A stretch of DNA of 64,000 nucleotides from Anaerolineae bacterium (GTDB lineage: Bacteria > Chloroflexota > Anaerolineae > UBA1429), in contig OY776562.1 of NCBI GenBank assembly GCA_963675785.1, positions 2,336,001-2,400,000 of the forward strand, read 5' to 3'. Below are positions 3,547 to 24,072 of this stretch, piece by piece; the first letter of the stretch is position 1; each line of letters begins with the position of its first letter. Made by a program: the position numbers and the translations under genes. Below the pieces are notes generated by a model that was given only the letters and a program-made list of their open reading frames with translations, ran no database searches and was not told where the DNA came from.

Positions 3547-5208
3547 TTACTCTCTGGCGAGTTCCACTTTGATGGCCTGGCCGCGAATCTTCCAGCCTTT
3601 CATGCGCCGGATGACATGGTCTACTTGGTCCTGGGCAACATCAACCGAAGTATCCAAATCGTGGATCTTGATGGCGCCAATGGCCTTACCCTCGATACCC
3701 GCCGTGCCTGTAATCGCACCCACAATCTCACCCGGGCGTATGCCGCTTTCGCGGCCAACGTTTAGTGAAAGGCGAACCATACCCGGCTCATTGCGTGTTC
3801 TGGTCTGTGTTGGGCGTCGGCGCGGAGCGGAACGCTGCGGACTACGCCGCTCAGAGCGATCTCGTCGATCTCGCTCAAGCGTATTCGTACGCATTCGTGC
3901 AATATCCTCGACAGGTCTCTTGATTTCGCCAGCACGTGCCAACTGAATGGCCGCAGCCGCCAAATCGAGGGGATCATAACCCCCTGCTACGAGGTTCTCA
4001 GCCAGAGTACGCTCATCAGCAAAATCGTCCAGAGCCAACTGCTCGGCAAGTTTATCGATAAAACGCTCATCCCGGCGCTTTTGCACATCCGCAATGGACG
4101 GCAGTGAAACTTCGGGGATGGTCTGGTGCATATACTTTTCGATGCGCCCGAGACGCCAGCCCTCTTTGGGCGTCACCAGTGTCAAGGCCACGCCTTGTTT
4201 GCCCGCACGTCCTGTGCGGCCAATACGGTGCACATAGTATTCAATATCCACAGGGATATCGAAATTGATAACGTGAGACATATCGTCGATATCCAAACCA
4301 CGTGCAGCCACGTCCGTCGAAATCAGTAGTTGTGTTTGCCCCTGGCGGAAATGTCGCAGCACAGACTCACGAGCCTGCTGCCCAAGTTCGCCATGTAGCG
4401 CTTCAGCCGTAAATCCGCGGGCTGTCAGTGCATCAGCCAACTGATCGGCGCCAACACGCGTCTTGGTAAAAACCAGGGCACTGGTGACATCCTCAGCTTC
4501 CAAAAGGCGAGTGATGGCCGCCAGCTTGTCACGCTCGGGCACCACGTAATAGCGCTGCTCAATGTTCTCTACCGTCACCTGGCCCGGATCAACGGTGATT
4601 GTCTCGGGTTCGTGCATATAGTTATCGGCCAGAGCGCGAATCTCTTTGGGCATAGTGGCCGAAAAAAGCGCCGTCTGCCGTGTATCAGGGGTCTCGCTCA
4701 AAATAGCCTCAATATCTTCGATGAACCCCATGCTGAGCATCTCGTCAGCCTCGTCCAGCACGAGAAAACGCACGCCAGCAAAGCTGAGCACGCCCTTTTT
4801 CAAGAGATCCAAAATACGGCCGGGTGTACCGACGACAATTTCGACGCCTTCTCGCAGACGCCTGATTTGATGCGAGTAGGACTTGCCGCCGTAAATCGGC
4901 AGCACGCGTGCACCTGTATAGCGCCCCAGGTCATGAATCGCCGCAGCAATCTGCATGGCCAATTCTCGGGTCGGGGTCATCACCAAACCCTGTACCTGAC
5001 CCTCTTCGGGATCCAGATTTTGCAGCATGGGCAGCGCAAAAGCGGCAGTCTTACCGGTGCCCGTTTGGGCCTGTCCCACCATGTCATGCCCCGCCAACAA
5101 AACGGGGATGCTCTTTTCCTGAATGGCGGTGGGGCTTTCAAAACCGAGCTCATCCACAGCCTTTGCCAACTCGGGGCCCAGCCCCAAAACCTCGAACGTA
5201 ACTGTCAC
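3547..5208 (-). CDS. deaD: DEAD-box RNA helicase (DeaD/CshA type) with C-terminal DbpA RNA-binding domain
   Basis: Q motif, AQTGTGKT, PTRELA, DEAD, SAT, HRIGRTGRAG; likely GTG start at 5208 after AGGGAG. Confidence 0.9.
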   Translation of the reverse strand: MTVTFEVLGLGPELAKAVDELGFESPTAIQEKSIPVLLAGHDMVGQAQTGTGKTAAFALPMLQNLDPEEGQVQGLVMTPTRELAMQIAAAIHDLGRYTGARVLPIYGGKSYSHQIRRLREGVEIVVGTPGRILDLLKKGVLSFAGVRFLVLDEADEMLSMGFIEDIEAILSETPDTRQTALFSATMPKEIRALADNYMHEPETITVDPGQVTVENIEQRYYVVPERDKLAAITRLLEAEDVTSALVFTKTRVGADQLADALTARGFTAEALHGELGQQARESVLRHFRQGQTQLLISTDVAARGLDIDDMSHVINFDIPVDIEYYVHRIGRTGRAGKQGVALTLVTPKEGWRLGRIEKYMHQTIPEVSLPSIADVQKRRDERFIDKLAEQLALDDFADERTLAENLVAGGYDPLDLAAAAIQLARAGEIKRPVEDIARMRTNTLERDRRDRSERRSPQRSAPRRRPTQTRTRNEPGMVRLSLNVGRESGIRPGEIVGAITGTAGIEGKAIGAIKIHDLDTSVDVAQDQVDHVIRRMKGWKIRGQAIKVELARE

Positions 5209-5300
5209 TTGGTACTCCCTTGCAGAGAAAAAGGACCCGCCATACAGGCAAGGTCCTTTGCATTTCCTATAGCCTCTAAGTTTCATAACACCAACGAGTA

Positions 5301-5329
5301 TCATATCACGGATTGCCGCCGATGCCAAT
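5301..5329 (-). promoter_or_regulatory. Putative sigma70 promoter of the helicase
   Basis: Minus strand TTGGCA-N17-TATGAT with TG extension. Confidence 0.5.
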
Positions 5330-5526
5330 ATCCTGTATGAAGGTGCACACACATTCATGCGTGCGCCTCGACACTATCCTGGCACAAAATTCTCTCCATG
5401 ACCTCACAAATACTTGACCAACTCAACTAATACAGATCATTACACTCCTTGGGCAGTTGAGCCATCCCTGCTAGAATATCAAAAGATCAATGGCGATCAC
5501 GAACTCATTGAAACGCGAGGCGCCAT

Positions 5527-7356
5527 ATGGTGAAACACCCTTTTTTATCAAGATTATCAAGAGGTCCCCTACTGGCGGATGGAGCCCTGGGCACCGAACT
5601 CTACCGGCGAGGCGTCATACCCGACCAGGTATGCATCGCCAATATCGATCAGAGCGAGCTGGTGCAAGAGCTGCACATGGCCTACCTGCAGGCCGGGGCT
5701 GAACTCATCGAGACCAACAGTTTTGGGGCCAACCGCATTCAGCTGGCTCGCTGTGGACGCGACAACCAGGTGGCGCGAATCAACCGTCAGGCGGCCAAGC
5801 TAGCCCGGTATGCCCGCGATACTGCCGGCAGTCAGGCATTTATCGCCGGCTCCATTAGTCCTCTAACTATTAGCAGCCGCACCACCACCCGTTACGCTGT
5901 TGAACAAGGACGAGCTTTATTCAGCGAGCAAATCGAGGCCTTGATTGAGGGCGGCGTCGATCTGCTATTGTTCGAGACCTTTCCCGACGTCGAGGAATTG
6001 GCCTTTGCCGTGAAAACCGCTCGCGAACTCTGCCAGTTGCCCATCATCGCCTCTGCAACCTTTGGGCAGGATGGCCGAACTCCCTGGGGTCAAACCCCGC
6101 AAGAGGTAGTCAAAGCATTGCAAGCTGCTCAAGCTGATGTCATTGGCTTGAACTGCAGCGTAGGGCCCAGCGATGCCCTAGATATCGCCAAACAAATGCT
6201 CTCGGCGGGCGTTGAGTACCTCAGTATGATCCCCAATGCGGGCATGCCCCAAAGAACCAGCGACGGACGCCTGCTATATGCAGCCACACCGGCATACTTT
6301 GCCGAGATCGCCGTCAAGGCCGCTGCTGCTGGCGTCTCGGTGATTGGCGGCTGTTGTGGCACCACACCAGAACACATTGCCGCCATGCGCCAGGCACTGG
6401 ATGCAGCTCACCCCGAGAAAAAGCCTGCGGCGGTCACGGTGGTACTGCCGCCCCGGCAAAAGGCCGGACAGGATACAGAACCCACAGCCTGGGCCAAAAA
6501 GCTCGCTGCGGGGCAATTTGTCACTTCTATCGAGCTCTCGCCGCCGCGAGGCCTGCACACTGGCGCCTTTATGCGCCAGGCCCGCCAAATCGCCGAGGCC
6601 GGCTGTGTGGACGCCATCAATGTCACCGATAGCCCCATGGCTCGGGTGCGCATGGACGTGGCCGCCGCCTGCTATATGCTGCAAACGCAGGTGCAAATCG
6701 AAACTATCGCCCATGTGACCACCCGCGACCACAGCCTCATTGGCCTGGAATCCATGCTCATTGGCGCCCACGCCATGGGCGTGCGCAACATCCTGGCACT
6801 CACTGGCGATCCTCCTTCGCTGGGAACCTGGGATCACAGCAGCGCCGTCTATGACATCGATTCGATCGGTTTGGTAGAGGCCATACAGGCCATGAAGCGC
6901 GGACAGGACATTGTAGGCACCGACCTGGGTTATGGAGCCGGCTTTTGCGTGGGTGCCGCCGCGGATCCCACACGCGATGATTTGCGCACCGAGGCCGAGC
7001 GCCTGCACCGCAAGATCGAGGCGGGGGCTGAATACGTCATGACCCAACCCCTGTTCGATCTGGCGCTGTGGGATCGTTTTTGCACGTATTACGGTGGTGA
7101 GGTGGAGGTGCCGGTGATTCTGGGGGTGCTGCCCCTGCTGAGCCAGCAGCATGCCGAGTACCTGCACAATGAAGTACCCGGCATTACCCTGAGCAAAGCT
7201 GTACTCGAAGAGATGCGCCACGCTGGCGCCAATGGACAGCAAGTGGGCATTCGCCTGGCGAAAGAGATGGTGGCCGCCGCCCACGAGCGCTTTGCTGGCG
7301 TGTACCTCATGCCCTCATACAACCGCTGCGAGACCGTATTGCAGGTGCTGGAATAG
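5527..7356 (+). CDS. Bifunctional homocysteine S-methyltransferase / 5,10-methylene-THF reductase (YitJ-like)
   Basis: LADGALGT, ETNSFGAN, GLNCSVGP, GGCCGTTPEHI; C-terminal MTHFR with NVTDSP, LALTGDP, TQPLFD, LHNEVPG. Confidence 0.9.
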   Translation: MVKHPFLSRLSRGPLLADGALGTELYRRGVIPDQVCIANIDQSELVQELHMAYLQAGAELIETNSFGANRIQLARCGRDNQVARINRQAAKLARYARDTAGSQAFIAGSISPLTISSRTTTRYAVEQGRALFSEQIEALIEGGVDLLLFETFPDVEELAFAVKTARELCQLPIIASATFGQDGRTPWGQTPQEVVKALQAAQADVIGLNCSVGPSDALDIAKQMLSAGVEYLSMIPNAGMPQRTSDGRLLYAATPAYFAEIAVKAAAAGVSVIGGCCGTTPEHIAAMRQALDAAHPEKKPAAVTVVLPPRQKAGQDTEPTAWAKKLAAGQFVTSIELSPPRGLHTGAFMRQARQIAEAGCVDAINVTDSPMARVRMDVAAACYMLQTQVQIETIAHVTTRDHSLIGLESMLIGAHAMGVRNILALTGDPPSLGTWDHSSAVYDIDSIGLVEAIQAMKRGQDIVGTDLGYGAGFCVGAAADPTRDDLRTEAERLHRKIEAGAEYVMTQPLFDLALWDRFCTYYGGEVEVPVILGVLPLLSQQHAEYLHNEVPGITLSKAVLEEMRHAGANGQQVGIRLAKEMVAAAHERFAGVYLMPSYNRCETVLQVLE

Positions 7357-7379
7357 CCAGCCCCAAGCCGGAGGTTCTT

Positions 7380-8228
7380 ATGCTGACGAAACTCTCATCC
7401 AAGAACAAGACCGTCAAGATTGCGCCAGAACGGCCGGTGGTGCTCATTGGCGAAGGCATCAACCCCACAGGCCGGCCCCGGCTGGCCCGTGCCCTGGCCA
7501 AAGGCGACATGGCCTATGTGCAAAAGCTGGCTCTGGAGCAGGCTGAGGCGGGCGCCGACGTGCTGGACGTGAATGTGGGCAGTGGAGGTGTAGACGAAGT
7601 GGTCGCGCTGCCCGCCGCCGTGCGGGCCATTGGTGAGGTGTGCGACCTGCCGCTGTGCCTGGATTCGCGGAACCCGGCTGCGCTGGCCGCCGCCCTAGCC
7701 ATCTACGAGGGTACGGCCCTGCTCAACTCCATAAACGGCGAGGCGGCAGTGATGGAGCGCCTGCTGCCAATAGCCGCTGAATACGGATGCGTCATTATTG
7801 CGCTTTGCACCGACGATGAGGGTATACCCAGTACGGCCAGTGGACGCCTGCTCGTGGCCGAAAAAATCATTAACCAGGCAGAATCGGCAGGAATTGCCCG
7901 GGAGAACATCTTGGTGGACTGCCTGGCGGAGAGCGCAGGTGCCACACCGGCGGCGGGCGCGATCTGTCTGGAGGCGGTGCGGCTGGTGCGTAGCGAGTTG
8001 GGCTGTAATATGACCTTGGGCGCCAGCAATATCTCGTTTGGGATGCCCAACAGAGAGACGATTAATGCGCGGTTCCTGGCGATGGCAATTGCCGCAGGGG
8101 TTAACGCCCCCATCGTGAACGCGGCACAGGCTAAAGAGACGGCGATGATCGCGGATCTGCTGATGGGCAATGATGAGTTGGGTATCAAGTACATCCGAGC
8201 TGAACGTAAGAAACGGAGAATGTCCTAA
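7380..8228 (+). CDS. Stand-alone pterin-binding methyltransferase domain (methyl-THF:corrinoid MT, AcsE/MetH-folate type)
   Basis: LIGEGINPTG, GADVLDVNVG, LCLDS, LNSING, LGASNISFGMPNR, FLAMAIAAG. Confidence 0.85.
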   Translation: MLTKLSSKNKTVKIAPERPVVLIGEGINPTGRPRLARALAKGDMAYVQKLALEQAEAGADVLDVNVGSGGVDEVVALPAAVRAIGEVCDLPLCLDSRNPAALAAALAIYEGTALLNSINGEAAVMERLLPIAAEYGCVIIALCTDDEGIPSTASGRLLVAEKIINQAESAGIARENILVDCLAESAGATPAAGAICLEAVRLVRSELGCNMTLGASNISFGMPNRETINARFLAMAIAAGVNAPIVNAAQAKETAMIADLLMGNDELGIKYIRAERKKRRMS

Positions 8229-9302
8229 AAAGCAAGGCCATCCTCTCGGAGAAGACGAATTCAAAGATTTTCGTCTTCTCCCCCTTTTGCCTAGGCCGCC
8301 ATTGGGCTGCCCAACCGTGAGAGGATCAATGCTCGGTTCCTGGCAATGGCGATTGCCGCGGGGGTCAATGCGCCGATTGTGAATGCGGCGCAGGCTAAAG
8401 AGACGGCGATGATCGCGGATTTACTGATGGGCAATGATGAGTTGGGTATCAAATACAGCAGATAAAAAGCATCTGACGAGCTGAACGTAAGAAACGGAGA
8501 ATGTCCTAAAAAGCAAGGCCATCCTCTCGGAGAAGACGAATTCAAAGATTTTCGTCTTCTCCCCCTTTTGCCTAGGCCGCCATTGGGCTGCCCAACAGAG
8601 AGACGATTAATGCGCGGTTCCTGGCGATGGCAATTGCCGCAGGGGTTAACGCCCCCATCGTGAACGCGGCGCAGGCTAAAGAGACGGCGATGATCGCGGA
8701 TTTACTGATGGGCAATGACGAACTGGGTATCAAATACAGCAGATAAAAAGCATCTGACGTGCTGAACGTAAGAAACGGAGAATGTCCTAAAAAGCAAGGC
8801 CATCCTCCCGGAGAAGACGAATTCAAAGATTTTCGTCTTCTCCCCCTTTTGCCTAGGCCGCCATTGGGATGCCCAACCGCGAGAGGATCAATGCTCGGTT
8901 CCTGGCGATGGCGATTGCGGCAGGAGTCAATGCCCCCATCGTGAACGCGGCACAGGCTAAAGAGACGGCTATGATTGCGGATTTACTGATGGGCAATGAC
9001 GAACTGGGTATCAAATACAGCAGATAAAAAGCATCTGACGTGCTGAACGTAAGAAACGGAGAATGTCCTAAAAAGCAAGGCCATCCTCTCGGAGAAGACG
9101 AATTCAAAGATTTTCGTCTTCTCCCCCTTTTGTTAAACACCGACCAAGATAGAGCAACAGACGGCTTTTGGCGATGGCAATTGCCGCAGGTGTGATAGAG
9201 AATGTCCACAAAACGGGGATATCCTCTTGAAGAGGACGAATTCAAAGATTTCGTCACCTCCACCTTTGCTTAGCCGCTATTGGGCTGCCCAACGAGAGAC
9301 GA
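8038..9302 (+). repeat. Tandem array of ~281-bp units copying the 3' end of the pterin-binding gene plus its hairpin
   Basis: Units start at 8038 (in gene, 264 bp), 8302, 8583 and 8864 (281-bp period); a degenerate, internally deleted copy at ~9145-9279 and a stub at 9280-9302. Confidence 0.95.
8248..8289 (+). terminator. Terminator-like hairpin, repeated at ~8529, ~8810, ~9091 and degenerate at ~9232
   Basis: GGAGAAGACGAA-TTCAAAGATT-TTCGTCTTCTCC followed by CCCTTTTG. Confidence 0.7.
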
Positions 9303-9424
9303 CCATGAAGAATAAACAGGCTGATGGTGCATTCGCCTGTTTCTTTGTTTGAAGGTTTCTTGTTTTCTGGTCTGCTATAATTAGTGGAAAACAGGAATAA
9401 ACAAGAGTTTGTGAGGTGAACGCT

Positions 9425-9892
9425 ATGCCGCAGATCGCTAAAGGCGGGAAATTCATCTTTGGAAAATCTCTGATTCGGGACGGCTTGAAGATTCAATTTC
9501 CGCCTCAGGCTATTGCAGAATACAACATCACCGCGGAGGGGAAAATCTATTTATTCACAGGCAGCAAGAGTACGGGCGGATTTTGTGTAACACGAAAAGG
9601 ACTGTTGTATCCATCCAAGATCGGCAATATTCTGCAAGATACGCCCGTGTTACTGAATTACGAATTGCAGGAAGGCGAGTTCGTCCCTTACAAAGGACGT
9701 TTTTACTGCTGGGTGAAGATTTTGCCCGAGGGGATGATCACACTGCCCAGACCGACGGCAGCTTTGTTGCAGGTTGAAACTGGCATGGCGCTTTTATCCA
9801 TCAGAAGCAGCGATATTGCTTTTACAATGGGGGCAAAAGGACCATTGCTAGAAAAGGCCCAGAACTATGACGGCGTAATCGACGTTTTCTAG
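9425..9892 (+). CDS. Conserved hypothetical protein, possibly with duplicated AbrB/SpoVT-like swapped hairpins
   Basis: MPQIAKGGKFIFGKS...IQFPPQA...GMITLP; GAGGTG RBS; extended -10 TGCTATAAT at 9373-9381. Confidence 0.6.
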   Translation: MPQIAKGGKFIFGKSLIRDGLKIQFPPQAIAEYNITAEGKIYLFTGSKSTGGFCVTRKGLLYPSKIGNILQDTPVLLNYELQEGEFVPYKGRFYCWVKILPEGMITLPRPTAALLQVETGMALLSIRSSDIAFTMGAKGPLLEKAQNYDGVIDVF

Positions 9893-9964
9893 TTCGCTAG
9901 ATTCCAACAACTGCGCGGGTGGGGCGAGTCAGGAACTTGTCAGTAAAGGGTAAGGGTATTGGCC

Positions 9965-10432
9965 ATGTTTCGCTATGTGCATACGAATATTGTTGCTAAA
10001 GACGCAGGAAAACTGATCGATTTTTACAAGCGTGTGCTGCACTGTAGCAGCATTGACGAAAAGCGCGATCTGCGCGGGGAATGGTTGGATGAGCTCACGA
10101 GGGTAGATGACGCTCATATCAGGGGTGAGCATCTTTTGCTGCCGGGGTATGGCGAGGATCACCCGACACTGGAGATCTTTGGCTACGACACGACGAAAGA
10201 TGCCATCCCCCAAGAGATCAATCGCCCCGGTATCGCTCACTTGGCGTTTGAAGTGGATGACGTGGAAGCCACCCTGCAAGAGATCATCCAGGCGGGAGGA
10301 AGCAGCATCGGAGAGGTGGTGACGGCAGCCTACCCGAACGGCGTGGAAGGGGTCTTTGTTTACGCACGAGACCCTGAAGGCAATATTGTCGAGCTGCAAA
10401 GCTGGAAACGGATCCAAGCCGACTCGAAATAG
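9965..10432 (+). CDS. VOC/glyoxalase family protein
   Basis: YVHTNIVAKD, PGIAHLAFEVDDVE, YARDPEGNIVELQ. Confidence 0.85.
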   Translation: MFRYVHTNIVAKDAGKLIDFYKRVLHCSSIDEKRDLRGEWLDELTRVDDAHIRGEHLLLPGYGEDHPTLEIFGYDTTKDAIPQEINRPGIAHLAFEVDDVEATLQEIIQAGGSSIGEVVTAAYPNGVEGVFVYARDPEGNIVELQSWKRIQADSK

Positions 10433-10563
10433 TGGATGCAGAGAGCCAGTACCAGGAGCCCACAGCGTAAGATGGGGTTTCTATGTTGATAGACCACAAG
10501 CGGACTCGCCGGTGAGGGCGGGGTGGCGAATACGGCAGACCCCGAGCTGAAGGGGCGCCGAGG

Positions 10564-11775
10564 TCAGTTTAGCAGGGCAGACAGCTCCGAGTAACCCTGG
10601 GCATCTGGGGCAATCTCGATACCCTGAAGACCCTGATAGATCCGAAAATGATCCAAAGCCTGAGAAAACGCACGGTTCATCTCGGACGAAGGGGCCACAT
10701 TGGGCTGCCACCACCAATTCTTGATGAGCAGGGTGTTGTTCTGGCGGTTACGGACCGGCTCGAAACGGGCCACAAAGCGATCGCCATAGAGCACGGGGAG
10801 CACGTAATAGCCGTACTCGCGCTGGGCGACGGGCTTGTAGACCTCCCAGCGATAGTCGAAATCAAAGAGAAAGCTGAGCATGTCGCGATCCCAGATGAGA
10901 TTATCGAGGGGGGCGATGAAAGAGACACGCGGGGCCTGGGTAGGCGGCTGCTGAGCCAGGGGCAGCAGGGCCTCCTCGGAGCGGCGCAGGTAATAGGGCC
11001 ACCTGGCGTCCTCGACCTCGACCTCTAACAGCTCGCCGCGCTCGGCCAGACGCTGAACCGCGGCCGTGCGCTGAGCGGCCTTGATTCCGGACATGCCCAT
11101 CCAGGGGACTCCGCCGCCGGTGCGCAGCAGGCCCACACTGCCCAGACGACGGAGGACATAGGCCTCCTGATAGGCCTCGGCGGTGGGATTGGGCTCCTCG
11201 GCAGAGACGATCTCGGTGGGAAGGTGGCGCTCGATGAGATCATAGACCTTGCGAGTGCCCACGCGGTGATGAATGACCAACTGGCCCATGGTGTGCATGC
11301 CCTCAAGGGCGGCACGAGAAACGCGGGCGGGGCCCCAAGGCCAATCCACACGCTCGTTATGGTCGAGATCGATGGAAGAGAGAGGGCCGCGCTCGGCCAG
11401 GGCCCGGCGCACCTGGGGGATGACCTCGAAAATGGCGCCGGAGCGCCTTTGCATGTGATGACGCTCACTCTCTCGCCAGCGCCCGAAAAAGGGCCAGTCC
11501 TCGACGGGGTAGAGGCAGGCCATCTTGTCCCAGCCATCCAGCAGGGCGAAATCGGTGTAGAGCAGCTCCTCCAGCAGGGCGGGCGTATAGCCAGAGACGC
11601 GCGACTGGAGGACCAGATCGGGATTGCGGCCCACCACATTGAGGGGGTCGAACTGGACGGCGCGCACGTGATGGACAAAGGCCAGAGCGCCCTCTTTGCC
11701 GCTGAGCTGCCTGGGGGGCAGCAGGTATTGGTGTAATAAGAGCAAACGACCGGCCTGTTGGCGGGTGAGCTTCAC
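10564..11775 (-). CDS. YcaQ/AlkZ family DNA crosslink-repair glycosylase (HTH_42 winged helix)
   Basis: VQFDPLNVVGRN (QxD catalytic motif), APLDNLIWDR, YRWEVYKP..QREYGYYVLPVLYGDRFVAR; GTG 11775 after GGAGG. Confidence 0.85.
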   Translation of the reverse strand: MKLTRQQAGRLLLLHQYLLPPRQLSGKEGALAFVHHVRAVQFDPLNVVGRNPDLVLQSRVSGYTPALLEELLYTDFALLDGWDKMACLYPVEDWPFFGRWRESERHHMQRRSGAIFEVIPQVRRALAERGPLSSIDLDHNERVDWPWGPARVSRAALEGMHTMGQLVIHHRVGTRKVYDLIERHLPTEIVSAEEPNPTAEAYQEAYVLRRLGSVGLLRTGGGVPWMGMSGIKAAQRTAAVQRLAERGELLEVEVEDARWPYYLRRSEEALLPLAQQPPTQAPRVSFIAPLDNLIWDRDMLSFLFDFDYRWEVYKPVAQREYGYYVLPVLYGDRFVARFEPVRNRQNNTLLIKNWWWQPNVAPSSEMNRAFSQALDHFRIYQGLQGIEIAPDAQGYSELSALLN

Positions 11776-11818
11776 GAAAACCTCCACGATTGACGGACAA
11801 CGGATACATGTTATCATA

Positions 11819-11830
11819 GAACAGATGTTC
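11819..11830. promoter_or_regulatory. LexA SOS box (Cheo-type)
   Basis: Exact GAAC-AGAT-GTTC in the ycaQ/ogt divergent intergenic region. Confidence 0.7.
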
Positions 11831-11902
11831 TTGTCTAGTGGGGACTGGAAAGATGGACAAAACCTGCTAGAGTAAGTTTATTGAAAAAAGAAAGAGGGAG
11901 CC

Positions 11903-12427
11903 ATGAGCCCAGAAGATAAGCTCGTTCGCATTCGCCGTACCATGGTGCCCAGCTCAATTGGGCTGCTGCTGGTGGCGGCCACGACCAAGGGGCTATGCTA
12001 TGTGGCCCTGGGGGATACGGAGGACGAGGTGGAAGAGGCGCTGCGCGCTGCCTACCCGCAAGCAGAGTTCACGGCGGGGGACGCCGAGCTGGCGGGCTGG
12101 ACGCAACAGGTGCTAAGTATCATCGAGGAGCCGGGGCAGCCGGTGGACGTGCCCCTAGACGTGGAAGGGACAGCCTTTCAGCAAAAGGTGTGGCGGGCAC
12201 TGCAAGAGATCCCGCTGGGGACGACGGTGAGTTACGGCGAGTTGGCGCAAAAGATCGGGGCGCCCAAGGCGGCGCGCGCCGTGGGCCACGCCTGCGCGAC
12301 GAACAAGGTAGCGCTGGTGATTCCCTGCCACCGGGTGGTGCACCAAGACGGTACGCTGGGCAGCTACTATTGGGGGCTGGCGCGCAAGAAAGAGCTGCTG
12401 CGGCGAGAGAAGGACTCCCGAGGGTGA
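11903..12427 (+). CDS. ogt: Methylated-DNA--protein-cysteine methyltransferase
   Basis: GTAFQQKVW, SYGELA, ARAVG.AC..N, IPCHRV active-site motif. Confidence 0.9.
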   Translation: MSPEDKLVRIRRTMVPSSIGLLLVAATTKGLCYVALGDTEDEVEEALRAAYPQAEFTAGDAELAGWTQQVLSIIEEPGQPVDVPLDVEGTAFQQKVWRALQEIPLGTTVSYGELAQKIGAPKAARAVGHACATNKVALVIPCHRVVHQDGTLGSYYWGLARKKELLRREKDSRG

Positions 12428-16274: not shown

Positions 16275-18020
16275 ATGCCAAACTTTCGATTGAAGCTGGC
16301 CGCACTGGTTGCGTCAGCCGTCATGGTGGTTGGCTGCAGCACGAGTGGCTCGGCCAGCCCTGAGCAGTTTTATTCCACCGGGCAAGTAACGCGCGGCGAT
16401 ATGGCCGAAGTGATTCAGACCTACGGCCAGATTACGGCGCAAGAAGAAGAGACCCTCACCTTTGGTACTGTCAGCGGCACCATCTCTGAGGTACTGGTGA
16501 GCGTCGGCCAAACCGTACAGGCGGGTGATCCGCTGGTGCGGCTGAACACGGCTGCGTTGGAAAAGGCGCTGGTAGAAGCCAAGGCCGATCTGGTGGTGGC
16601 CGAAGCCAAGCTGCGCGAAGCCGAGGTAACTGCCTCGGAATCCGCCGTGCTGGAGGCCGAAGCGAACCTCATCTCGGCTGAGAACGCGGTCTCTAAAGCC
16701 TATCTCGACTGGCAGATCGCCATCGCGACGGGCCTCGAATCGCTGCAGAACGCGGTGACCAAGGCCCAGGCCGACGTGGCGCTGGCCCAACAGCAATTGG
16801 AGATGACTCAACTTACCGCGCAGAGCGGGCAGATTCGCCTGTTGGAATACGACGAGGCGTTTTTGCAGCGCAGCCTGCGCGACATTACCCCCGAGCAAGA
16901 CCCCGCGCCGATTCAGGAGCAGTTGGAGCAGACTCAGCAGAGCCTGGCCACTGCGCGTGCCTCGCGCGAGAGCAGCATTCAATCGGCGCAGGACGTGGTG
17001 GATCAGGCCGAGCAGGATTTAGCCCGCGCCCAGGCCAAGCTACAGCGCGCCACAAATGGCACCGACGATCCCACGGTTAGCGCCGAACTCGCCTATACAC
17101 AGGCTGTGAGCCAGCGCGATGCTGCCCAAAAGGCGTTGGACGACCTCAATCAGGGCGGTGACCCTGCCTCTGTGGAGGCCGCCAAAACGACTTATGATGC
17201 GGCCTTGGCCAAGGTAGAAGAGATCGAGTCCAAGATTGAAGATACAACCCTCACCGCTCCCTTTGCCGGCGTCATCTTTTCGCTCAATGCCCAAGAGGGC
17301 CAGGTGGTTACTTCCTCCGATCAGATCATTTACCTGGCCAACCCCTCTGAGTTGAGCGCTACCGCCAACGTTTCCGAGGTCGATGTGGTGAAGCTCAGTC
17401 TCGGTCAAGAGGTGCGCGCCACTTTTGACGCCTTCCCCGACGAGCTGGTTATCGGCGAATTGGAGAGCATCGATCAACAGGCTGATACGCAGAGCGGCAT
17501 TCCTGCGTTCGCCATCAAGGTCGCTTTTGACGAGACGCCTGACGGCGTCAGCCCCGGCCTGAGCGCCAATCTGCGCATCATCATTGGCGAACGGCAAGAT
17601 GTCATTATGGTGCCCGCCGCCGCCCTGCAGCAGGATTGGGAAAACGTGTATGTGCAGGTGCAAAAGGCCAGCGGTTCCTGGGAAACGCGCACTATCACCA
17701 TCGGCATCAATGATGGCATCATGGTGGAGGTTCTCAGCGGACTGGAAGAGGGCGAGACAGTGATGCTGCCTCTCACCGATACCAGCACTGACACCGGTAC
17801 GGGCGTCGTCGAACCTCTCATGGAAGATTCCAATCAAGAAGGCGTCATCGATGAGACTGGAGACGGCGTCATTCTTGACGATTCAGGCGAAGGTGTGATC
17901 ATCGAAGAAGCAGGGTCTTCTGAGGCAGGGATTGGCGGAGCTGATAGCCCTGAGATCATTGAAACGACGCCGCTGACCGATACGGTGTCCGTTGATAAAG
18001 AAAGCACAGAGGCCAGGTAA
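16275..18020 (+). CDS. Lipoprotein efflux adaptor (HlyD/MFP) with long coiled coil, operon 1
   Basis: Lipobox VVG-C; split lipoyl halves (GQTVQAGDPL / LTAPFAGVI); GLEEGETV; acidic disordered tail. Confidence 0.8.
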   Translation: MPNFRLKLAALVASAVMVVGCSTSGSASPEQFYSTGQVTRGDMAEVIQTYGQITAQEEETLTFGTVSGTISEVLVSVGQTVQAGDPLVRLNTAALEKALVEAKADLVVAEAKLREAEVTASESAVLEAEANLISAENAVSKAYLDWQIAIATGLESLQNAVTKAQADVALAQQQLEMTQLTAQSGQIRLLEYDEAFLQRSLRDITPEQDPAPIQEQLEQTQQSLATARASRESSIQSAQDVVDQAEQDLARAQAKLQRATNGTDDPTVSAELAYTQAVSQRDAAQKALDDLNQGGDPASVEAAKTTYDAALAKVEEIESKIEDTTLTAPFAGVIFSLNAQEGQVVTSSDQIIYLANPSELSATANVSEVDVVKLSLGQEVRATFDAFPDELVIGELESIDQQADTQSGIPAFAIKVAFDETPDGVSPGLSANLRIIIGERQDVIMVPAAALQQDWENVYVQVQKASGSWETRTITIGINDGIMVEVLSGLEEGETVMLPLTDTSTDTGTGVVEPLMEDSNQEGVIDETGDGVILDDSGEGVIIEEAGSSEAGIGGADSPEIIETTPLTDTVSVDKESTEAR

Positions 18021-18021
18021 G

Positions 18022-19647
18022 ATGAGCAAGAAACGTAAATGGACCAAGCCGCTGGCCGGCATCGGCTGCCTTTCTGTCATCGCCATCGTTGTGGTATTGG
18101 TGATTACGGTCGCAATTCCCCAGATCAAATCGCTGGTGAACGGCGACACGGATCAATCCCAATGGGACCTCATGGGCCCTACTATCGACCAAACAGTAAC
18201 TGTTGGCTCGGTTTCCAACGGCATTCAGGTGTACGGCACGGTCAAGCCTATCCGCGAGGCCTCGCTGTCCTTTGGGTACGGCAACGCCACGGTATCGCTG
18301 ATCAACGTCTACGCGGGCATGCCCGTCATGGCGGGGGATACTCTCATTCAGGTGGATACCGAAGAGCGCGAGCGCGACCTGGCGCAGGCCAAATCGGATT
18401 TACAGGACGCCCAGGATGAACTGGACGCCCTTTTGAGCGGAGTCGATCTGGCATCAAAACAGCTCGAACTAAGAGTAGAGCTGGCCCAGTGGCAGGAGAA
18501 ACTCACTGACGCACAGACTGCACTGGCCGATTTCGATGCGGGCAAGGGGACTCCTGCCGAAGAGAGAGAACGCGCTGCGCAAGAACTGACCCAGGCTCGG
18601 GCCAATTTGGACGAGCTAGTAAACGGCCAAGATCGGCAAGAGATGATCGATCAGTTGCAGTGGATCTATAACCAGGCCGAAGTCAAGCATGGCGAGATGA
18701 CGGTCATTGCCAACCCCAGCGAGCAAGACATGGATATCGAGTGGCTGCTGCGCATCGATATGCTGGCCAAGTACGAATCGTTGGAGCAGGCCAAACTGCA
18801 ATACGATATAGACGTTGCCAACGCCGAGCTGCGTGTGCAGACTGCTGAGCAAGAACTCGCCCGGCTGGATGCAGAGCTGGCGCTAGGGAGCCAGGCCATT
18901 GCCCGGCAAGAGATTGTCGCCGAGATTGCCGCAGCGCAAACGCGTATTGCCCAAATCAACGCGTCGCTTACTAACCTTTCGCAGAATGTGGATACGGCCG
19001 AAGTAGCCGAAGCGCGTGCTGAGGTCATCAAAAAAGAGGGTGCTCTGGAAGAAGCCGAGAACGCCATGGCGGATTCGGTGCTCGTAGCCCCCTTTGACGG
19101 TCTCGTGGCTCAGGTCAATGCTGAGCAAGGCAGTCCCGTATCCGCTGGGGCAGCTGTTGTCATCATCCAGGATACCAGTTCGTTGCGCATCACTGCCCAG
19201 ATGAGCGAGGTCGACCTCAAACGCATTACCACTGGCGATCCCGTAGTGGTCACTTTTGACGCCTATCCTGGTCAGCAAGTCTATGGCACAGTTGGCGAAT
19301 TGCCGCTCACGGGCACTTATCAGAACGGCATCACCACCTACGAGGTGCCTGTTCTCCTCGAGGATGTGGGTATCGACCTGATGACCGGCATGTCGGCCAA
19401 TGTGCTGGTGCCACTGGAAACCATCGATAACGTGCTGGTGGTTCCCGCAGCAGCCGTGTTTAGTGAATACACTGGTGACGACTATGTTTGGCTCGTCAAT
19501 GGCAACGATGTCGAAAAACAATACATTGAAGTGGGCATTAGCGATGGCCTAAACACCGAGATCAAGGCGGGGTTGGAAGAGGGTCAGATTGTGCGAATGG
19601 TCACCCAGAGCTATTCCCAAAGCTCTGGAGGAGTGATATTCTACTAA
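18022..19647 (+). CDS. Membrane-anchored efflux adaptor (HlyD/MFP), operon 1
   Basis: N-terminal TM helix, long coiled coil, LVAPFDG, GMSANV, GLEEGQ. Confidence 0.8.
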   Translation: MSKKRKWTKPLAGIGCLSVIAIVVVLVITVAIPQIKSLVNGDTDQSQWDLMGPTIDQTVTVGSVSNGIQVYGTVKPIREASLSFGYGNATVSLINVYAGMPVMAGDTLIQVDTEERERDLAQAKSDLQDAQDELDALLSGVDLASKQLELRVELAQWQEKLTDAQTALADFDAGKGTPAEERERAAQELTQARANLDELVNGQDRQEMIDQLQWIYNQAEVKHGEMTVIANPSEQDMDIEWLLRIDMLAKYESLEQAKLQYDIDVANAELRVQTAEQELARLDAELALGSQAIARQEIVAEIAAAQTRIAQINASLTNLSQNVDTAEVAEARAEVIKKEGALEEAENAMADSVLVAPFDGLVAQVNAEQGSPVSAGAAVVIIQDTSSLRITAQMSEVDLKRITTGDPVVVTFDAYPGQQVYGTVGELPLTGTYQNGITTYEVPVLLEDVGIDLMTGMSANVLVPLETIDNVLVVPAAAVFSEYTGDDYVWLVNGNDVEKQYIEVGISDGLNTEIKAGLEEGQIVRMVTQSYSQSSGGVIFY

Positions 19648-20939
19648 TGAAAAGGCCAATCAATCTACAATTTGCGCTGCATGGGCTGGGTTCCAGCAAG
19701 CTGCGTTCGGCACTCACTACACTTGGCATCGTCATCGGTGTCGCCGCTGTCATTACGATCGTCTCTTTGGGGCAAGGCCTAAGCCGGGCCACAAAGGAAC
19801 AGATGGAATCTTATGGCAGTGGTACCATTGAGGTGCGTCCATCGATGAGCGGCGGCTATTACTATTCTGATTATGCAATGAGCTCGGTTGCTGTAATGGG
19901 TGGGAGTGATTACTATTCTTCGCCGGCGCAGGCCCAGCTTACGTCTCAGGATGTAACAGCCATCGAAATGCTTTCCACACGCGTGGACGGCGTATCTCCA
20001 CAAATCGAGATCTATGGCAGCAGCTCGTGGAATGGCGAAAGCACCTACGCGGGTTCGATCCTTGGTATCACGCCGGAATGGCTCAACGTCTACAAGCGAG
20101 AACTGTCTCTGGGACGCTTTATCTCGGATGAAGACAACCAAAATCAGTTGCCCGTTGTGGTCATTGACGAGCAATTGGCAGAAGAGGTGATGGGAAGTAT
20201 CAATCCGATCGGACAAATCCTCCATATCACTGTCAACGAAGTTACGCAAAACTATACGGTGATTGGAGTGCTCGCTGCCAACTCTCAGTACAGTTCTACG
20301 CGCTATAACCTGCTCATCCCTATGGAAACCGCGAACGTACGCCTGCCTGGCGCACGTGATGCAGGTATCAGTATGATTGCCTTGCGTATGGATGATCGCG
20401 ACATGCAAGAACGCGAATATGCTTTGGCTGAGGTCAACACGATCCTGCGCGCCAGCCACAAGCTTAGCCGATCGGATACGGCAGACTTTTACCTGCAAGA
20501 CACGCTGCAATATAGTGAAAGCTCCACCCAATTCCTCCAAGTCGTTACTATTGTTCTCGCCCTGATAGCCGGCATCTCTTTGATTGTAGGCAGCATCGGC
20601 CTCATGAACATCATGCTGGTCACTGTAAGTGAACGCACCTGGGAGATCGGTATGCGCAGGGCCATCGGCGCCCAGCGCAGCGACATCATGGTGCAGTTCC
20701 TGACAGAAGCCATCCTTCTTTCGCTGGCTGGAGGTTTGGTTGGCATGGGATTGGGAATCGCTGGCTCCTATGGTGTGGCGATGCTGTTCGAGGAACTTCA
20801 AGGGCATATCGTGGTCACAGCGGGCATCGTCGGCATTGCCGTAGGTGTATCAACAATCGTTGGCGTCGTTTCAGGCCTGTACCCTGCATGGCGCGCAGCC
20901 CGGTTGCAACCGACAGAAGCGCTTAGACACATGGCCTAG
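19647..20939 (+). CDS. MacB/YknZ-like ABC permease, operon 1
   Basis: LRSALTTLGIVIGV, GLMNIMLVTVSERTWEIGMRRAIGA, YPAWRAARLQPTEALR. Confidence 0.9.
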   Translation: MKRPINLQFALHGLGSSKLRSALTTLGIVIGVAAVITIVSLGQGLSRATKEQMESYGSGTIEVRPSMSGGYYYSDYAMSSVAVMGGSDYYSSPAQAQLTSQDVTAIEMLSTRVDGVSPQIEIYGSSSWNGESTYAGSILGITPEWLNVYKRELSLGRFISDEDNQNQLPVVVIDEQLAEEVMGSINPIGQILHITVNEVTQNYTVIGVLAANSQYSSTRYNLLIPMETANVRLPGARDAGISMIALRMDDRDMQEREYALAEVNTILRASHKLSRSDTADFYLQDTLQYSESSTQFLQVVTIVLALIAGISLIVGSIGLMNIMLVTVSERTWEIGMRRAIGAQRSDIMVQFLTEAILLSLAGGLVGMGLGIAGSYGVAMLFEELQGHIVVTAGIVGIAVGVSTIVGVVSGLYPAWRAARLQPTEALRHMA

Positions 20940-20965
20940 TTGTAGCAAGTACGCAGGAGGATTTC

Positions 20966-21664
20966 ATGACAAGTGAAAACGGCGCTCTGCTGCACCTGGA
21001 GAACGTCCGCAAAATCTACCAGATGGGCGAAGTAGAAGTCGAAGCCATCAAGAACGCCAGCCTGGATATTCAGGCTGGAGAATTCGTTGCCATTGTTGGG
21101 CCTTCAGGTTCTGGAAAAACAACCATGCTCAACATCGTTGGCTGTCTCGATCTGCCTACAGAGGGCACGTATTATCTTCAGGGGCAGGATGTGATGGCCA
21201 TGAACGATAGGCGAATCTCGCAGCTTCGTGGCGAGGGGCTGGGGTTTGTTTTTCAGAATTATAGCCTTTTGAACCGCGCCACGGCCCTGGCCAACGTTGA
21301 AATGCCCTACCTTTACAAGTACCGCAATGGAAATAAGAACCGTGCCAAAGAATTATTGGAAAAGGTTGGGCTCGGAGATCGTATCAACCACCGCCCCACC
21401 GAATTATCTGGTGGGCAGCAGCAACGTGTAGCTGTGGCGCGCGCGCTGATGAACGACCCTTTCTTGCTGTTAGCGGATGAACCTACCGGCAACCTGGATA
21501 GTCACTCGGGCCAAGAGCTCATGGATTTGTTCGATCAACTCAACCATGAGCAAGGGCTTACTATCATCATGGTTACCCATGACGCCGACATAAGTGCACG
21601 GGCCAAGCGCACTGTACACATGCTGGATGGTGAAGTTGAGCACGACGAACACAACGGCAGATAG
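20966..21664 (+). CDS. ABC ATP-binding protein (LolD/MacB type), operon 1
   Basis: [32 protein letters not shown]. Confidence 0.95.
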
Positions 21665-21691
21665 CTCTCTCTAGATTTTGCTTATCAACAA

Positions 21692-21730
21692 GAACCGCTG
21701 CACCTCGAATGAGGTACAGCGGTTCGTTTT
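21692..21730 (+). terminator. Terminator of operon 1
   Basis: GAACCGCTGcACCTC-GAAT-GAGGTaCAGCGGTTC followed by GTTTT. Confidence 0.7.
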
Positions 21731-21881
21731 AGGTTGGGATGCCCCCACTCTACCCAAAAGCTCAATACTAAAAGAACTAAACAACTATCTAACAGCCGAT
21801 TCATATTGTCTCTATATTCTTTTACGAGAATCTAGTACAGATTTGCCGGATTTGCTCAATGAACCTCTCCCACACACAAAC

Positions 21882-21923
21882 AAAAAATCCGATTCACGGG
21901 CCCAAGGGCCTGCAAATCGGATT
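21882..21923 (-). terminator. Probable tRNA terminator
   Basis: AATCCGATT..GGCCC-AA-GGGCC..AATCGGATT hairpin with adjacent A6 tract. Confidence 0.55.
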
Positions 21924-21934
21924 AGCATTTCTAG

Positions 21935-22007
21935 CGCGCCCAGCAGGGGTCGAACCTGCAACCGACGGATTCGAAGTCCGGCACTCTATCCATTGAGCTA
22001 TGGGCGC
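21935..22007 (-). tRNA. tRNA-Arg (anticodon UCG), CCA not encoded
   Basis: Reverse complement folds as GCGCCCA acceptor, GCTC/GAGT D arm, loop CTTCGAA, GCAGG-TTCGACC-CCTGC T arm; followed by CTA; TTGACA-N16-TAAACT promoter at 22023-22050. Confidence 0.93.
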
Positions 22008-22158
22008 AAAACTCACCACCCTAGTTTAGTCTGGCCCTGCTCTCTGTCAAATGGCCCAGCCCGAAGACCCGTAGGCCAAGATATCTATTTGCTGGCGCAT
22101 TGCCCACAGAGCGCAAGTAACTATCCGACAAAGCACTATTCGAAAGGAGCCTTATCTA

Positions 22159-24054
22159 ATGCCAAGCTCTCGATTAAAACTGCCCTCCCTACTGGCGGCA
22201 GTTATTTTGGTGGCAGGCTGTAGTGGCACCACAGGCAATTCATCCGATGCCAGCGTTTTCTACTCTACTTCAGAAGTAGCAATCGGCAATGTCTCTGAAA
22301 TCGTTTCGAGTTATGGCAGCGTTGCTGCACAAGAAGAAGAGACCATGACTTTTGACAGTGTCAGCGGTACGGTTTCCGAAATCTATGTGACCGCAGGGCA
22401 GACCGTCCAAGAAGGAACTCCACTTCTTAGCCTTGACACCACCGATCTGGAAGAAGAACTTGTCGAAGCCAACGCTGAACTCGTTGTTGCAGAAGCCAAG
22501 CTGCGTGAAGAGGAAGTAACCGCTTCGGAATCTGCAGTACTGGAAGCCGAAGCCAACCTCGCTACTGCTGAAAACCAAGTTTCCCAAACATATCTCGAAT
22601 GGCAGATTGCCATTGCTAGTGGGCTAGAAACCCTACAAAACGATGTAACAGATGCTGAATACGCTCTGGAAAAAGCCCAACAAGAACTCGAGATGACTGA
22701 GCTTACTTCACAAAGTTCAACCATACGCCAACTCGAATATGATATCGCCTTCTTTGAGCGCACCCTGCGCGATCTCGATGATGAGGAAGAAGAAGCTGAC
22801 ATTGAAGAGGAATCGGCCGAAGCCGAAAAGAGTCTCACATCTGCACAAGCGTCTCGCGAGAGCGCAATTCAGAACGCTCAAGATGCAGTAGATCAGGCTC
22901 AAGAAGATCTGGATAAGGCTCAGGCTAAACTCAATCTGGCCATTGCCGGCACATACGACCCGACTGCTTCGACAGAGCTTGCCTATCAGCAAGCCGTCAG
23001 CGAGCGTGATGATGCTCAAGAAGCGCTGGATGAACTCAACGAAGGCGGTGATCCTGCTTCTGTGGAGGCAGCTCAAACGGCATATGATGCAGCTCTTGCT
23101 AACGTCCAAGATCTAGAAGAGCAGATTGCGGATACAACGCTCTATGCTCCTTTTGACGGTATCATTTTTACATTGAATGTTGATCTGGGAGACACTGTTG
23201 CAGCAACAGACAGCATTATCTATATCGCCAACATGAGTGCCCTAGGTGCCAGCGGAACCGTATCTGAAGTCGATTACTCTTTGCTCAAAGTAGGACAATC
23301 TGTTCTCGTTACCTTTGATGCCTATCCTGATATTTCTGTCACGGGAGAACTGACCGAAGTCTCTGAAGAGGCGGACTCTGACTCAACGGTGCCTACATTT
23401 GACATCGAGGTGGCCTTCTCAGAAACACCAGAAGAGATCACCCCAAGCATTACCGCCAATCTGAGCATCGTTGTAGGAGAGCTCGAAGATGTTCTTACGG
23501 TAGCTGCGGCCGCAATCCAACAAGATGGTGATACCGTCTATGTGCAAGTGCAAAAGAGCACTGGAGACTGGGAAGCACGTGAGGTATCGATTGGGCTCAG
23601 CGACGGCACACTATGTGAAGTTCTGGATGGTCTAGAAGAGGGTGAAACTGTCATGATCCCCGTTGTTTCTAGTGGCAGCTCATCAGAAGATGAAGAGGAA
23701 GATACGACTGAAGAGGCGACGCTCGAACCTATAGCGACGACCACACCAGAGAGTACCGAATCTTCAACAGAGGATACCTCCGCTATGCCCGAAATTACGA
23801 TGCCCACAGATGGCCAATTCCCGACCCAAGGGCAGCAAGGTCAGGGCCCCATGGGAGAAGGGGGAGGAACTGATTCTACTCTAGATCAGTTGCAGGATCT
23901 CTTGGGTGATGGCACTGATACTGCGCCCAGTGGTGGTGAGATGCCCAGCGGCGGCGAGATGCCCAGTGGCGGCGAAATGCCCAGTGGTGGCGAAATGCCC
24001 AGTGGCGGCGAAATACCCAGTGGCGGCGAGATGCCCAGTCAGACGAATCCCTAA
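22159..24054 (+). CDS. Lipoprotein efflux adaptor (HlyD/MFP), operon 2, highly acidic
   Basis: Paralog of 16275-18020; lipobox VAG-C; C-terminal PSGGEM repeats. Confidence 0.8.
   Translation: MPSSRLKLPSLLAAVILVAGCSGTTGNSSDASVFYSTSEVAIGNVSEIVSSYGSVAAQEEETMTFDSVSGTVSEIYVTAGQTVQEGTPLLSLDTTDLEEELVEANAELVVAEAKLREEEVTASESAVLEAEANLATAENQVSQTYLEWQIAIASGLETLQNDVTDAEYALEKAQQELEMTELTSQSSTIRQLEYDIAFFERTLRDLDDEEEEADIEEESAEAEKSLTSAQASRESAIQNAQDAVDQAQEDLDKAQAKLNLAIAGTYDPTASTELAYQQAVSERDDAQEALDELNEGGDPASVEAAQTAYDAALANVQDLEEQIADTTLYAPFDGIIFTLNVDLGDTVAATDSIIYIANMSALGASGTVSEVDYSLLKVGQSVLVTFDAYPDISVTGELTEVSEEADSDSTVPTFDIEVAFSETPEEITPSITANLSIVVGELEDVLTVAAAAIQQDGDTVYVQVQKSTGDWEAREVSIGLSDGTLCEVLDGLEEGETVMIPVVSSGSSSEDEEEDTTEEATLEPIATTTPESTESSTEDTSAMPEITMPTDGQFPTQGQQGQGPMGEGGGTDSTLDQLQDLLGDGTDTAPSGGEMPSGGEMPSGGEMPSGGEMPSGGEIPSGGEMPSQTNP
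23926..24039 (+). repeat. 18-bp in-frame tandem repeat x6 (PSGGEM/I)
   Basis: CCCAGYGGYGGYGARATR units read directly. Confidence 0.95.
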
Positions 24055-24072
24055 GGATAGAGGCAAAATAGC

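Follow-up and report, generated by a model that had tools for sequence, protein, structure and literature searches.

Duplicated bacterial genes can evolve in concert through gene conversion and unequal crossing-over, as exemplified by tufA and tufB. Another arrangement is the silent-cassette system, to which the pilE/pilS genes of Neisseria belong. A system of the same sort, vlsE/vls of Borrelia, is described as one expression site accompanied by contiguous, promoterless partial copies that are about 90% identical and that exchange sequence as short-tract mosaics (PMC11499132). Displaced gene ends form a further group; around the prophage e14, a report on icd/icdC describes a displaced 3′ gene fragment with mostly synonymous differences, and recombination can yield chimeric genes (PMC13626634). 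Displaced fragments of target genes are also the principle used for tRNA and tmRNA genes in the Islander database, and tandem islands are described in the same source (PMC4383910). Here we describe a stretch of 64,000 nucleotides (hereafter the window) from the genome of an Anaerolineae bacterium of the Chloroflexota (GCA_963675785.1, contig OY776562.1, positions 2,336,001 to 2,400,000), in which the 3′ end of a gene for a pterin-binding methyltransferase is followed by a tandem array of silent copies of that gene end. Positions are those of the window unless they are given as genome positions.

The array combines traits of displaced gene ends and of silent-cassette arrays, and it is a member of neither group. 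As in the concerted evolution of tufA and tufB, the tails of the units are essentially identical within the genome and different between strains, and the copy content varies between strains; unlike in tufA and tufB, the repeats are untranslatable fragments, and homogenization is confined to the non-coding part whereas the coding part is deeply diverged at synonymous sites. The likeness to icd/icdC consists in 3′ fragments lying in the same orientation downstream of an intact gene, with mostly synonymous differences and few amino-acid changes (PMC13626634). Unlike icd/icdC, the array has no island or integrase between the fragments, its period is exact, a single insertion is common to its units, the junctions are similar, and the units include the gene's own downstream tail in unchanged form. 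With vls, the locus has in common a single gene with contiguous silent partial copies (three intact and two decayed units) and a mosaic pattern of exchange (PMC11499132). However, the cassettes of vls and pilS vary the amino acids of surface antigens, whereas 22 of the 24 variable codons here (51 codons in total) are fully synonymous and the product is a cytoplasmic enzyme module. A limited literature search found nothing on such arrays, and we make no claim that they are undescribed.

An initial annotation of this DNA, made from the sequence alone, had described three repeats of 281 bp starting at 8302, 8583 and 8864, and both Tandem Repeats Finder (TRF) and a repeat search reproduced them. 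TRF reported a single array at 8196–9132 (period 281, 3.3 copies, 94% matches, score 1685). The repeat search placed the coding block (161 nt) at 8038, 8302, 8583 and 8864, with identities of 100, 87, 94 and 88%, and the tail (94 nt) at 8196, 8477, 8758 and 9039, with identities of 100, 100, 98 and 99%. Homology between the gene and its copies begins exactly at 8038, at a small palindrome of the form TTGGG(A/C)TGCCCAA, and the copies lack the 5′ part of the gene. Each unit is made up of a 156-nt coding block, a 17-bp insertion, the former last 11 codons with their stop, a hairpin followed by CCCTTTTG, and a 12-nt junction (CCTAGGCCGCCA). The units abut directly at a period of 281 bp, with no DNA in between. 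The hairpin of the tail has a 12-bp stem (fold −39.8 kcal/mol, z = −2.87), and each tail also possesses a terminator-like site on the minus strand. The insertion, found at 8459, 8740 and 9021, is itself palindromic (CAGAT-AAAAAGC-ATCTG) and puts a TAA in frame, such that the reading ends in ...KYSR-stop; in addition, an in-frame TAG precedes every copy. Both features had been noted previously, and both hold for all three copies. The variable segment is bounded by small perfect palindromes, with TTGGGC-T-GCCCAA at 8038–8050 and the insertion at 8459–8475, and a further one, GCCTAGGC, lies at the junction (8289–8296); all are candidates for sites of recombination or template switching.

Decay of the array past 9145 had also been proposed. 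Alignment of 9123–9310 to a unit resolved this region into a decayed fourth unit and the truncated start of a fifth (Table 1), and decayed pieces were likewise recovered by the repeat search within 9162–9293. The coding fragment of unit 4 has gene-type states, and its tail is about 80% identical to that of the other units (81% over 113 nt, hence ~19% different). No unit was found elsewhere in the whole 3.22-Mb contig, and the boundary palindrome TTGGGMTGCCCAA is found at this locus only, bar one chance site in another gene. Among the long-period tandem repeats of the genome, no other gene-end array was found; the remainder were mostly in-frame repeats within long open reading frames (ORFs) or an array of clustered regularly interspaced short palindromic repeats (CRISPR), and the repeats at 1,962,141 and 2,706,706, which span several ORFs, were left out of this comparison.

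A similar picture might be produced by an assembler that strings together strain variants of a single-copy gene end, an artefact of which the initial annotation had warned. The depths of Logan contigs from public sequencing runs contradict this. In run X1, which is possibly the genome's own source sample, the flanks have depths of 224 and 229, and nearly the same values were obtained for pieces unique to the gene end (237), to copy 1 (232) and to copy 3 (227); the 82-nt block common to the gene and copy 2 reaches 456, twice that of the flanks, and the tail 787, about 3.5 times. Every variant is therefore present at full genome dose, whereas single-copy strain variants would split the flank depth. 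The same array pieces were recovered at low depth in run X2, which belongs to another study. Moreover, the junction sequence CCTAGGCCGCCA+TTGGG can exist only if there was at least one real duplication, the genome was assembled as one contig of 3,217,757 bases, and units can be read in three other assemblies too. What speaks for an artefact is a third run, X5, where extra variant pieces and unequal flank depths (43.6 and 27.3) indicate that strain mixtures do occur in some samples. Since the contig depths in X1 fit a real array and not concatenated strain variants, we consider an assembly artefact hardly credible. The order of the units is taken from the assembly only.

The variation among the units is concentrated in the coding block and follows the codons. 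Variable columns number 26 of 156 in the coding block against 2 of 106 in the tail (Fisher p=6.3e-5), which agrees with the previous description of the non-coding part as nearly invariant. Within the coding block, 4, 1 and 21 of the variable columns fall on codon positions 1, 2 and 3, respectively (chi-square p=1.5e-6). Over 53 codons, the gene and copy 1 differ by 16 synonymous and 3 non-synonymous changes (M>L, T>R, and an I>S that borders the insertion); the corresponding counts are 7 and 2 for copy 2, and 16 and 2 for copy 3. A manual count for copy 1, 15 synonymous versus 2 non-synonymous, had been given in the initial annotation and agrees with ours once two edge codons are dropped. Singletons private to one copy are synonymous in 10 out of 10 cases, where the chance rate is 0.235 per change (p=5.2e-7); in strict terms, unit 1 has six private changes, all at third codon positions, and unit 3 has four, all synonymous. 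Two-step synonymous swaps, e.g., AGA/CGT and CTG/TTA, are also present. Nei-Gojobori pN/pS, summed over the six pairs, was computed in all six frames, as had been suggested: the value is 0.047 in the frame of the gene (mean pS 0.365), 0.115 in the antisense frame with coinciding wobble positions, and 1.6–12.8 in the remaining four frames, so the synonymous excess is strongest in the gene's own frame. The two antisense ORFs (84 and 136 aa) have no Pfam family and no homologue, and the value of 0.115 is explained by the wobble positions that this frame shares with that of the gene. At the amino-acid level, the copies differ from the gene only by M/L, by T/R, and at the insertion edge with its shortened end. 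Both substituted sites are tolerant, as evidenced by the Leu in 13 of 13 relatives where the gene has Met and by the occurrence of Ala, Glu, Thr, Asp or Gly where the copies have Thr or Arg.

Decaying copies, or snapshots of the gene, would be mainly non-synonymous; the intact units hence spent their history under protein-level selection, and the variation in each of them must have passed through it. Plain tandem duplication with neutral decay is excluded for units 1–3 by these codon-aware changes, so the pN/pS and codon-position tests support the previous view that such decay cannot yield the pattern; unit 4, with its deletion and ~80% identity, does display neutral decay. The idea that each unit is a snapshot preserving the gene as it was at some earlier time is rejected by argument, since in an equal span of time a silent copy would gain about four times as many changes as the synonymous sites of the gene, most of them non-synonymous.

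Purifying selection on the units themselves would explain the low dN without extra assumptions. The units would then be expressed as a protein of ~52 aa that corresponds to the last structural element of the enzyme, or be reached by read-through, or act as RNA. Indeed, the ATG at 8869 in unit 3 opens a callable ORF of 52 aa (8869–9027), which gene callers have predicted and which is recorded as the predicted protein P0122, and a version of 80 aa, P0121, is known from a related strain. However, the codon at this position is CTG in units 1 and 2, with the in-frame TAG 15 nt upstream; inspection of the sequence revealed nothing like a Shine-Dalgarno sequence before the start, and no promoter-like site was found by a simple scan of 7300–9600. 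A terminator-like hairpin precedes each unit, the stop has been lost in two other strains with extensions that are not conserved, and read-through could not chain the units in frame because 281 is not a multiple of 3. As for an RNA, no Rfam family was matched in 5000–12000 at E up to 1, and constraint on an RNA would not be codon-aware. We regard direct selection on expressed units as quite improbable.

Segmental exchange within the array is evident from mosaic tracts and from pairs of sites showing all four gametes (41 of the 300 pairs of biallelic sites). The copies had been called patchworks before, which is borne out by these pairs and by the two halves of copy 2: this copy equals the gene over 8044–8125, a tract of 82 nt, and equals copy 3 past 8150. 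The 5′ end of its gene-identical tract lies at the homology boundary with the gene, and a copy-type C is retained at the site equivalent to 8043. Tracts of gene type are also present within copy 1 (8127–8156) and copy 3 (8106–8143). Copies 1 and 3 have in common the block CGy-GAG-AGG-ATC-AAT-GCT and share seven derived states, besides their private ones. These tracts would fit exchange in either direction, and unit-type sequence was not observed within the gene of any strain.

Near-identical strains differ within the array by states already found in other units. With respect to this genome, the flanks in X2 show no difference and those in X5 differ at 1 of 374 and 1 of 481 bases, and at position 8414 every contig in X2 and X5 has the copy-3 state. 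X5 also contains a piece with copy-3 states at 8632, 8644, 8647 and 8650 on a copy-2 background, and its tails carry the variants 8482 T>A and 8496 G>A. In three other assemblies the array was seen at the protein level through the short predicted proteins P0121, P0126 and P0131, and judging from these sequences the assemblies must be of the same species. P0121 is unit-3-like, with the TAA turned into a Tyr codon and a tail that differs; two of its differences are the X5 variants just mentioned. P0126 is encoded on the contig of the representative full-length gene, which has two amino-acid differences from the gene described here and a gene-type end; P0126 itself represents a more decayed unit, in which three amino acids are changed, the stop is gone and the tail has diverged. 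P0131 reads through several internally deleted units.

The KYSR insertion is found in the three intact units and in all three of these predicted proteins, and it is absent from the full-length genes seen for the species (0 of 2), both of which have the long C-terminus of gene type. In all 13 relatives, 8–17 residues follow a conserved Tyr, as they do in the gene, which identifies the insertion as the derived state. Because the insertion is common to all units, and because the junctions are similar where readable, all units must go back to a single ancestor, and the gene end was not captured time and again. It also follows from the distribution of the insertion among these sequences that the array is older than the split of the strains. 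The tails, which differ between strains (P0121 and the X5 variants), are not absolutely constrained; their identity within this genome hence reflects homogenization or a recent common origin. Units 4 and 5, decayed yet with gene-type states, together with the degraded P0126 and P0131, reveal that units are born and decay.

Outside the species, the array was found in no relative: matches in 40 relatives, and in another 41 genomes from the family, were confined to the coding part (67–77% identity), and the tail was not found in them. Self-comparison of 95 other loci of this gene family revealed no gene-end repeat; nine of the 95 have some internal repeat, never of the 3′ end of the gene. A library of 5.8 billion proteins held no close foreign allele, the nearest C-terminus from outside the species being 62–63% identical (164 matching full-length proteins), and no close allele was found in metagenome loci either, where the top identity was 48–51% among the best 80 of 118 relatives. 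The hairpin had 0 matches in metagenome contigs and one chance match, in an unrelated genome, among species-representative genomes. Thus, of the interpretation put forward initially, the part concerning selection-filtered mosaic variation stands; the part that saw the units as a store of alleles from functional genes of related strains is not borne out, since the protein and metagenome collections contain no such allele and all units share the insertion.

Import in a broader sense is the main rival explanation. According to it, functional genes of related lineages were the source of the coding blocks in units 1 and 3 and of part of unit 2. Transformation followed by homologous recombination could have brought these sequences in; alternatively, circular DNA with a homologue of the gene end could have inserted repeatedly, in Campbell-type or site-specific fashion, and lost its cargo later, as in icd/icdC-e14. 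High dS, low dN and the two-step synonymous swaps form a pattern like that of orthologous alleles, and displaced gene ends with mostly synonymous differences are known from icd/icdC (PMC13626634). The array also sits at a synteny break and is followed by low-GC DNA and a SIR2-HerA defence pair. A second gene-end duplication in the same genome (309,419–310,839) adds to these points. At that locus, the last ~27 codons and the terminator hairpin of an ABC-transporter gene (genome 309419–309559) are repeated 1.28 kb downstream (310701–310839) at 84% identity, the changes being mostly synonymous and, within the hairpin, compensatory. Between the two copies lies a 1.2-kb insert that contains a minus-strand gene for a REase-ARP/PD-(D/E)XK nuclease; a low-GC DUF6119 gene follows, and no integrase was found in the four ORFs scanned there. 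Against import, the tail of this second locus, with about 12 differences and an indel over 56 nt, has roughly double the divergence of its coding part (9 differences in 85 nt), whereas the tail of the array is more than 10 times less diverged than its coding part. The array lacks cargo and integrase and has a period of exactly 281 bp; all its units have one insertion, their junctions are alike, and their tails are identical to the resident tail. Homology to an outside gene would be confined to an island of 156 nt, with heterology on both sides and 10–13% divergence, a poor recombination substrate, and the searched collections contain no close donor allele. On balance, we place import on the unlikely side, while treating it as a serious possibility. 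A bolder reading of both loci, which we hold to be improbable, is that conserved gene ends act as integrase-free homology 'attachment sites' for cassettes that loop out and insert by general recombination, in which case the array would be a residue without cargo.

The explanation that we favour, tentatively and at somewhat short of an even chance, is an old, lineage-specific tandem duplication of the 3′ end of the gene that evolves as a recombining array with ongoing short-tract exchange with the gene. One ancestral unit would have been duplicated from the palindrome TTGGGATGCCCAA to 12 nt beyond the terminator and would then have gained the 17-bp palindromic, stop-bearing insertion, with later units derived from it by unequal crossing-over. 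Intact units would swap short tracts of about 40–80 nt with one another and with the expressed gene. Selection would act by proxy: a damaging change in a unit would be lost with the cell once it had been copied into the needed gene, and synonymous changes would accumulate unseen. The same recombination, if most efficient on identical sequence, would keep the tails homogeneous, and the already diverged coding blocks would resist it. Units that are too diverged or deleted, such as unit 4, would leave the exchange and degrade. The tail of unit 4 differs by ~19%, a value of the same order as the per-lineage synonymous divergence implied by the mean pS, which suggests that the timescales fit.

Several points weigh against this proposal. 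How fast and in which direction conversion runs is inferred, as are selection by proxy and the cause that would limit homogenization to the tails; this applies above all to conversion into the gene, and each tract could have been copied either way. No unit was caught in the expressed position, and both full-length genes of the species (2/2) have the gene-type end. Selection by proxy needs a product of conversion rate and effective population size above ~1, and yet a rate low enough to allow a pS of 0.37, which leaves little room. The sharp difference in variability between the tail (2/106 columns) and the coding block (26/156) depends on the assumed preference of recombination for identical sequence, and the proposal leaves unexplained how the coding blocks first escaped homogenization. 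Finally, the second locus shows that foreign DNA has entered together with a diverged gene end, so that import stays plausible.

Known systems of cassette exchange and sequence diversification account poorly for the array. Pfam matches of 29 ORF translations (276 to 32180) included no integrase, transposase, recombinase or reverse transcriptase, and comparison of the unit with 50,697 phage and 72,556 plasmid records gave no match. Serial integration of an element carrying a replacement 3′ end, which had been considered initially, is therefore unsupported in its usual form, as the units abut and these 29 ORFs encode no integrase, transposase or reverse transcriptase. Likewise, a cassette exchange that diversifies the protein is contradicted by cassettes encoding nearly the same peptide, with M/L, T/R and the shortened end as the only differences. 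Diversity-generating retroelements are recognized by differences at template adenines and by a nearby reverse transcriptase; here the copy base is A at only 3 of 19, 3 of 8 and 4 of 18 differing sites, and the scanned ORFs contain no reverse transcriptase. Integrons have an IntI integrase with an attI site, and their cassettes end in attC sites with paired RYYYAAC and GTTRRRY cores. The sequence GCCCAAC at the unit start fits the former, but the units have no conserved GTTRRRY partner, and IntI is absent from the scanned ORFs.

In a dedicated switch, recombination at the boundary palindrome TTGGGMTGCCCAA or between units would swap the gene end. The C-terminus would then toggle between its long, basic form and the short one that ends in KYSR; alternatively, DNA and RNA would be altered without a change in the protein, to escape a sequence-specific attacker. 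An expression site with contiguous silent partial copies that are ~90% identical is the layout described for vls (PMC11499132), and small palindromes are present at both edges of the variable segment. A KYSR-ended protein would also be predicted to retain the whole region that aligns with solved homologues, the alignment stopping at query residue 264 (2e7f) or 278 (4o0q). On the other hand, no recombinase is encoded among the 29 scanned ORFs, the boundary palindrome is confined to the locus (bar the chance site), deletions between direct repeats are irreversible, and the encoded protein hardly varies. As for an attacker, no spacer of the genome's large CRISPR array matches 7380–9420, the longest match being 12 nt. 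None of the strains was found to carry a unit at the expressed position. We judge such a switch to be very unlikely. The CRISPR array in question looks like one from its arrangement at 1,073,424–1,082,056 of the genome, outside the window (~8.6 kb, a period of 61 bp and a 29-nt repeat, GTTTTCCCCACACCCGTGGGGATGGACCG), and a smaller related stretch lies near 1,082,659. More generally, the array might be maintained by selection itself, as a reserve from which a housekeeping gene can draw silent ends that are equivalent in protein and different in DNA. Such ends would supply templates for recombinational repair or re-coding, or they would let the enzyme change between a long and a short C-terminal form; this we hold to be improbable. 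If it were true, re-coding of the gene end would let the gene evade a sequence-specific nuclease, RNA or other attacker while the protein remained unchanged.

Table 1. Positions of the expressed gene and of the array units in the window.
Feature	Position	Strand	Description
Pterin-binding methyltransferase gene	7380..8228	+	ORF, 282 aa; Pfam PF00809 Pterin_bind E=8e-26
Unit 0 coding block (repeated gene part)	8038..8193	+	starts at small palindrome TTGGGATGCCCAA; 26/156 columns variable over four copies
Unit 0 tail	8196..8301	+	last 11 codons of the gene and TAA, hairpin 8248-8281 then CCCTTTTG, junction CCTAGGCCGCCA at 8290-8301
Unit 1 (copy 1, haplotype H1)	8302..8582	+	coding block, insertion 8459-8475 (TAA 8463-8465), tail, junction
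Unit 2 (copy 2)	8583..8863	+	5′ half equals the gene (8044-8125 equivalent), 3′ half of copy-3 type; insertion 8740-8756
Unit 3 (copy 3, haplotype H3)	8864..9132	+	insertion 9021-9037; tail stops at 9132 without junction
Decayed unit 4	9133..9279	+	coding-block start, 32-nt coding fragment 9162-9193, ~115-nt internal deletion, tail with hairpin 9229-9261
Truncated fifth-unit start	9280..9304	+	25 nt, TTGGGCTGCCCAACGAGAGACGACC; unrelated low-GC DNA thereafter

The solved homologues of the product of the expressed gene are methyltetrahydrofolate:corrinoid methyltransferases and the pterin modules of MetH, and its named relatives in the protein search are from Chloroflexota/Caldilineaceae. The ORF upstream (5527–7356) encodes a fusion of homocysteine S-methyltransferase and methylenetetrahydrofolate reductase (MTHFR), and from these domain assignments the two genes look like a split methionine synthase. 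Synteny breaks at the array: the ORF that is next to the methyltransferase gene in at least 8 of the 13 relatives sits 2.08 Mb away here (genome 258,858–260,189). In those relatives, the conserved ORF following the gene starts with M..ALGIDTGGTYTDA. The DNA straight after the array (9305–9950) is of low GC content, with a GC fraction of 0.46 in 9001–10000, and contains an ORF of 158 aa (9416–9892) that has no Pfam or PADLOC match. Further on, 3.2 kb downstream of the array, a low-GC gene pair at 12541–16052 matches the PADLOC models SIR2 (E=2e-158) and HerA (E=5e-255). Two successive, similar sets of genes follow at 16275–27720, apparently a tandemly duplicated efflux module; each encodes two HlyD-type membrane-fusion proteins, a MacB/FtsX permease and an ABC ATPase. 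The window also holds a minus-strand ORF of 2349 aa at 39342–46391. Outside the window, two adjacent small ORFs (~35 aa, MKKTYYTIVYIVLSL...) at genome 2832067–2832331 are 98% identical, and each has its own upstream region.

The locus is a natural case in which DNA that is unable to extend a gene, and that shows no sign of translation of its own, bears a strong signature of purifying selection at the codon level (pN/pS 0.05). A low dN/dS is accordingly no proof that an ORF is a gene, and one of the units has already been recorded as a predicted protein of 52 aa. Arrays of this kind can also pass for strain mixtures when genomes are assembled. Should the pattern be due to exchange with the expressed gene, bacterial gene conversion, and selection acting by proxy on silent DNA, could be measured at this locus. 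Together, the array and the second gene-end duplication hint that foreign cassettes gain entry to the genome at conserved gene ends in this little-studied lineage of the Chloroflexota.

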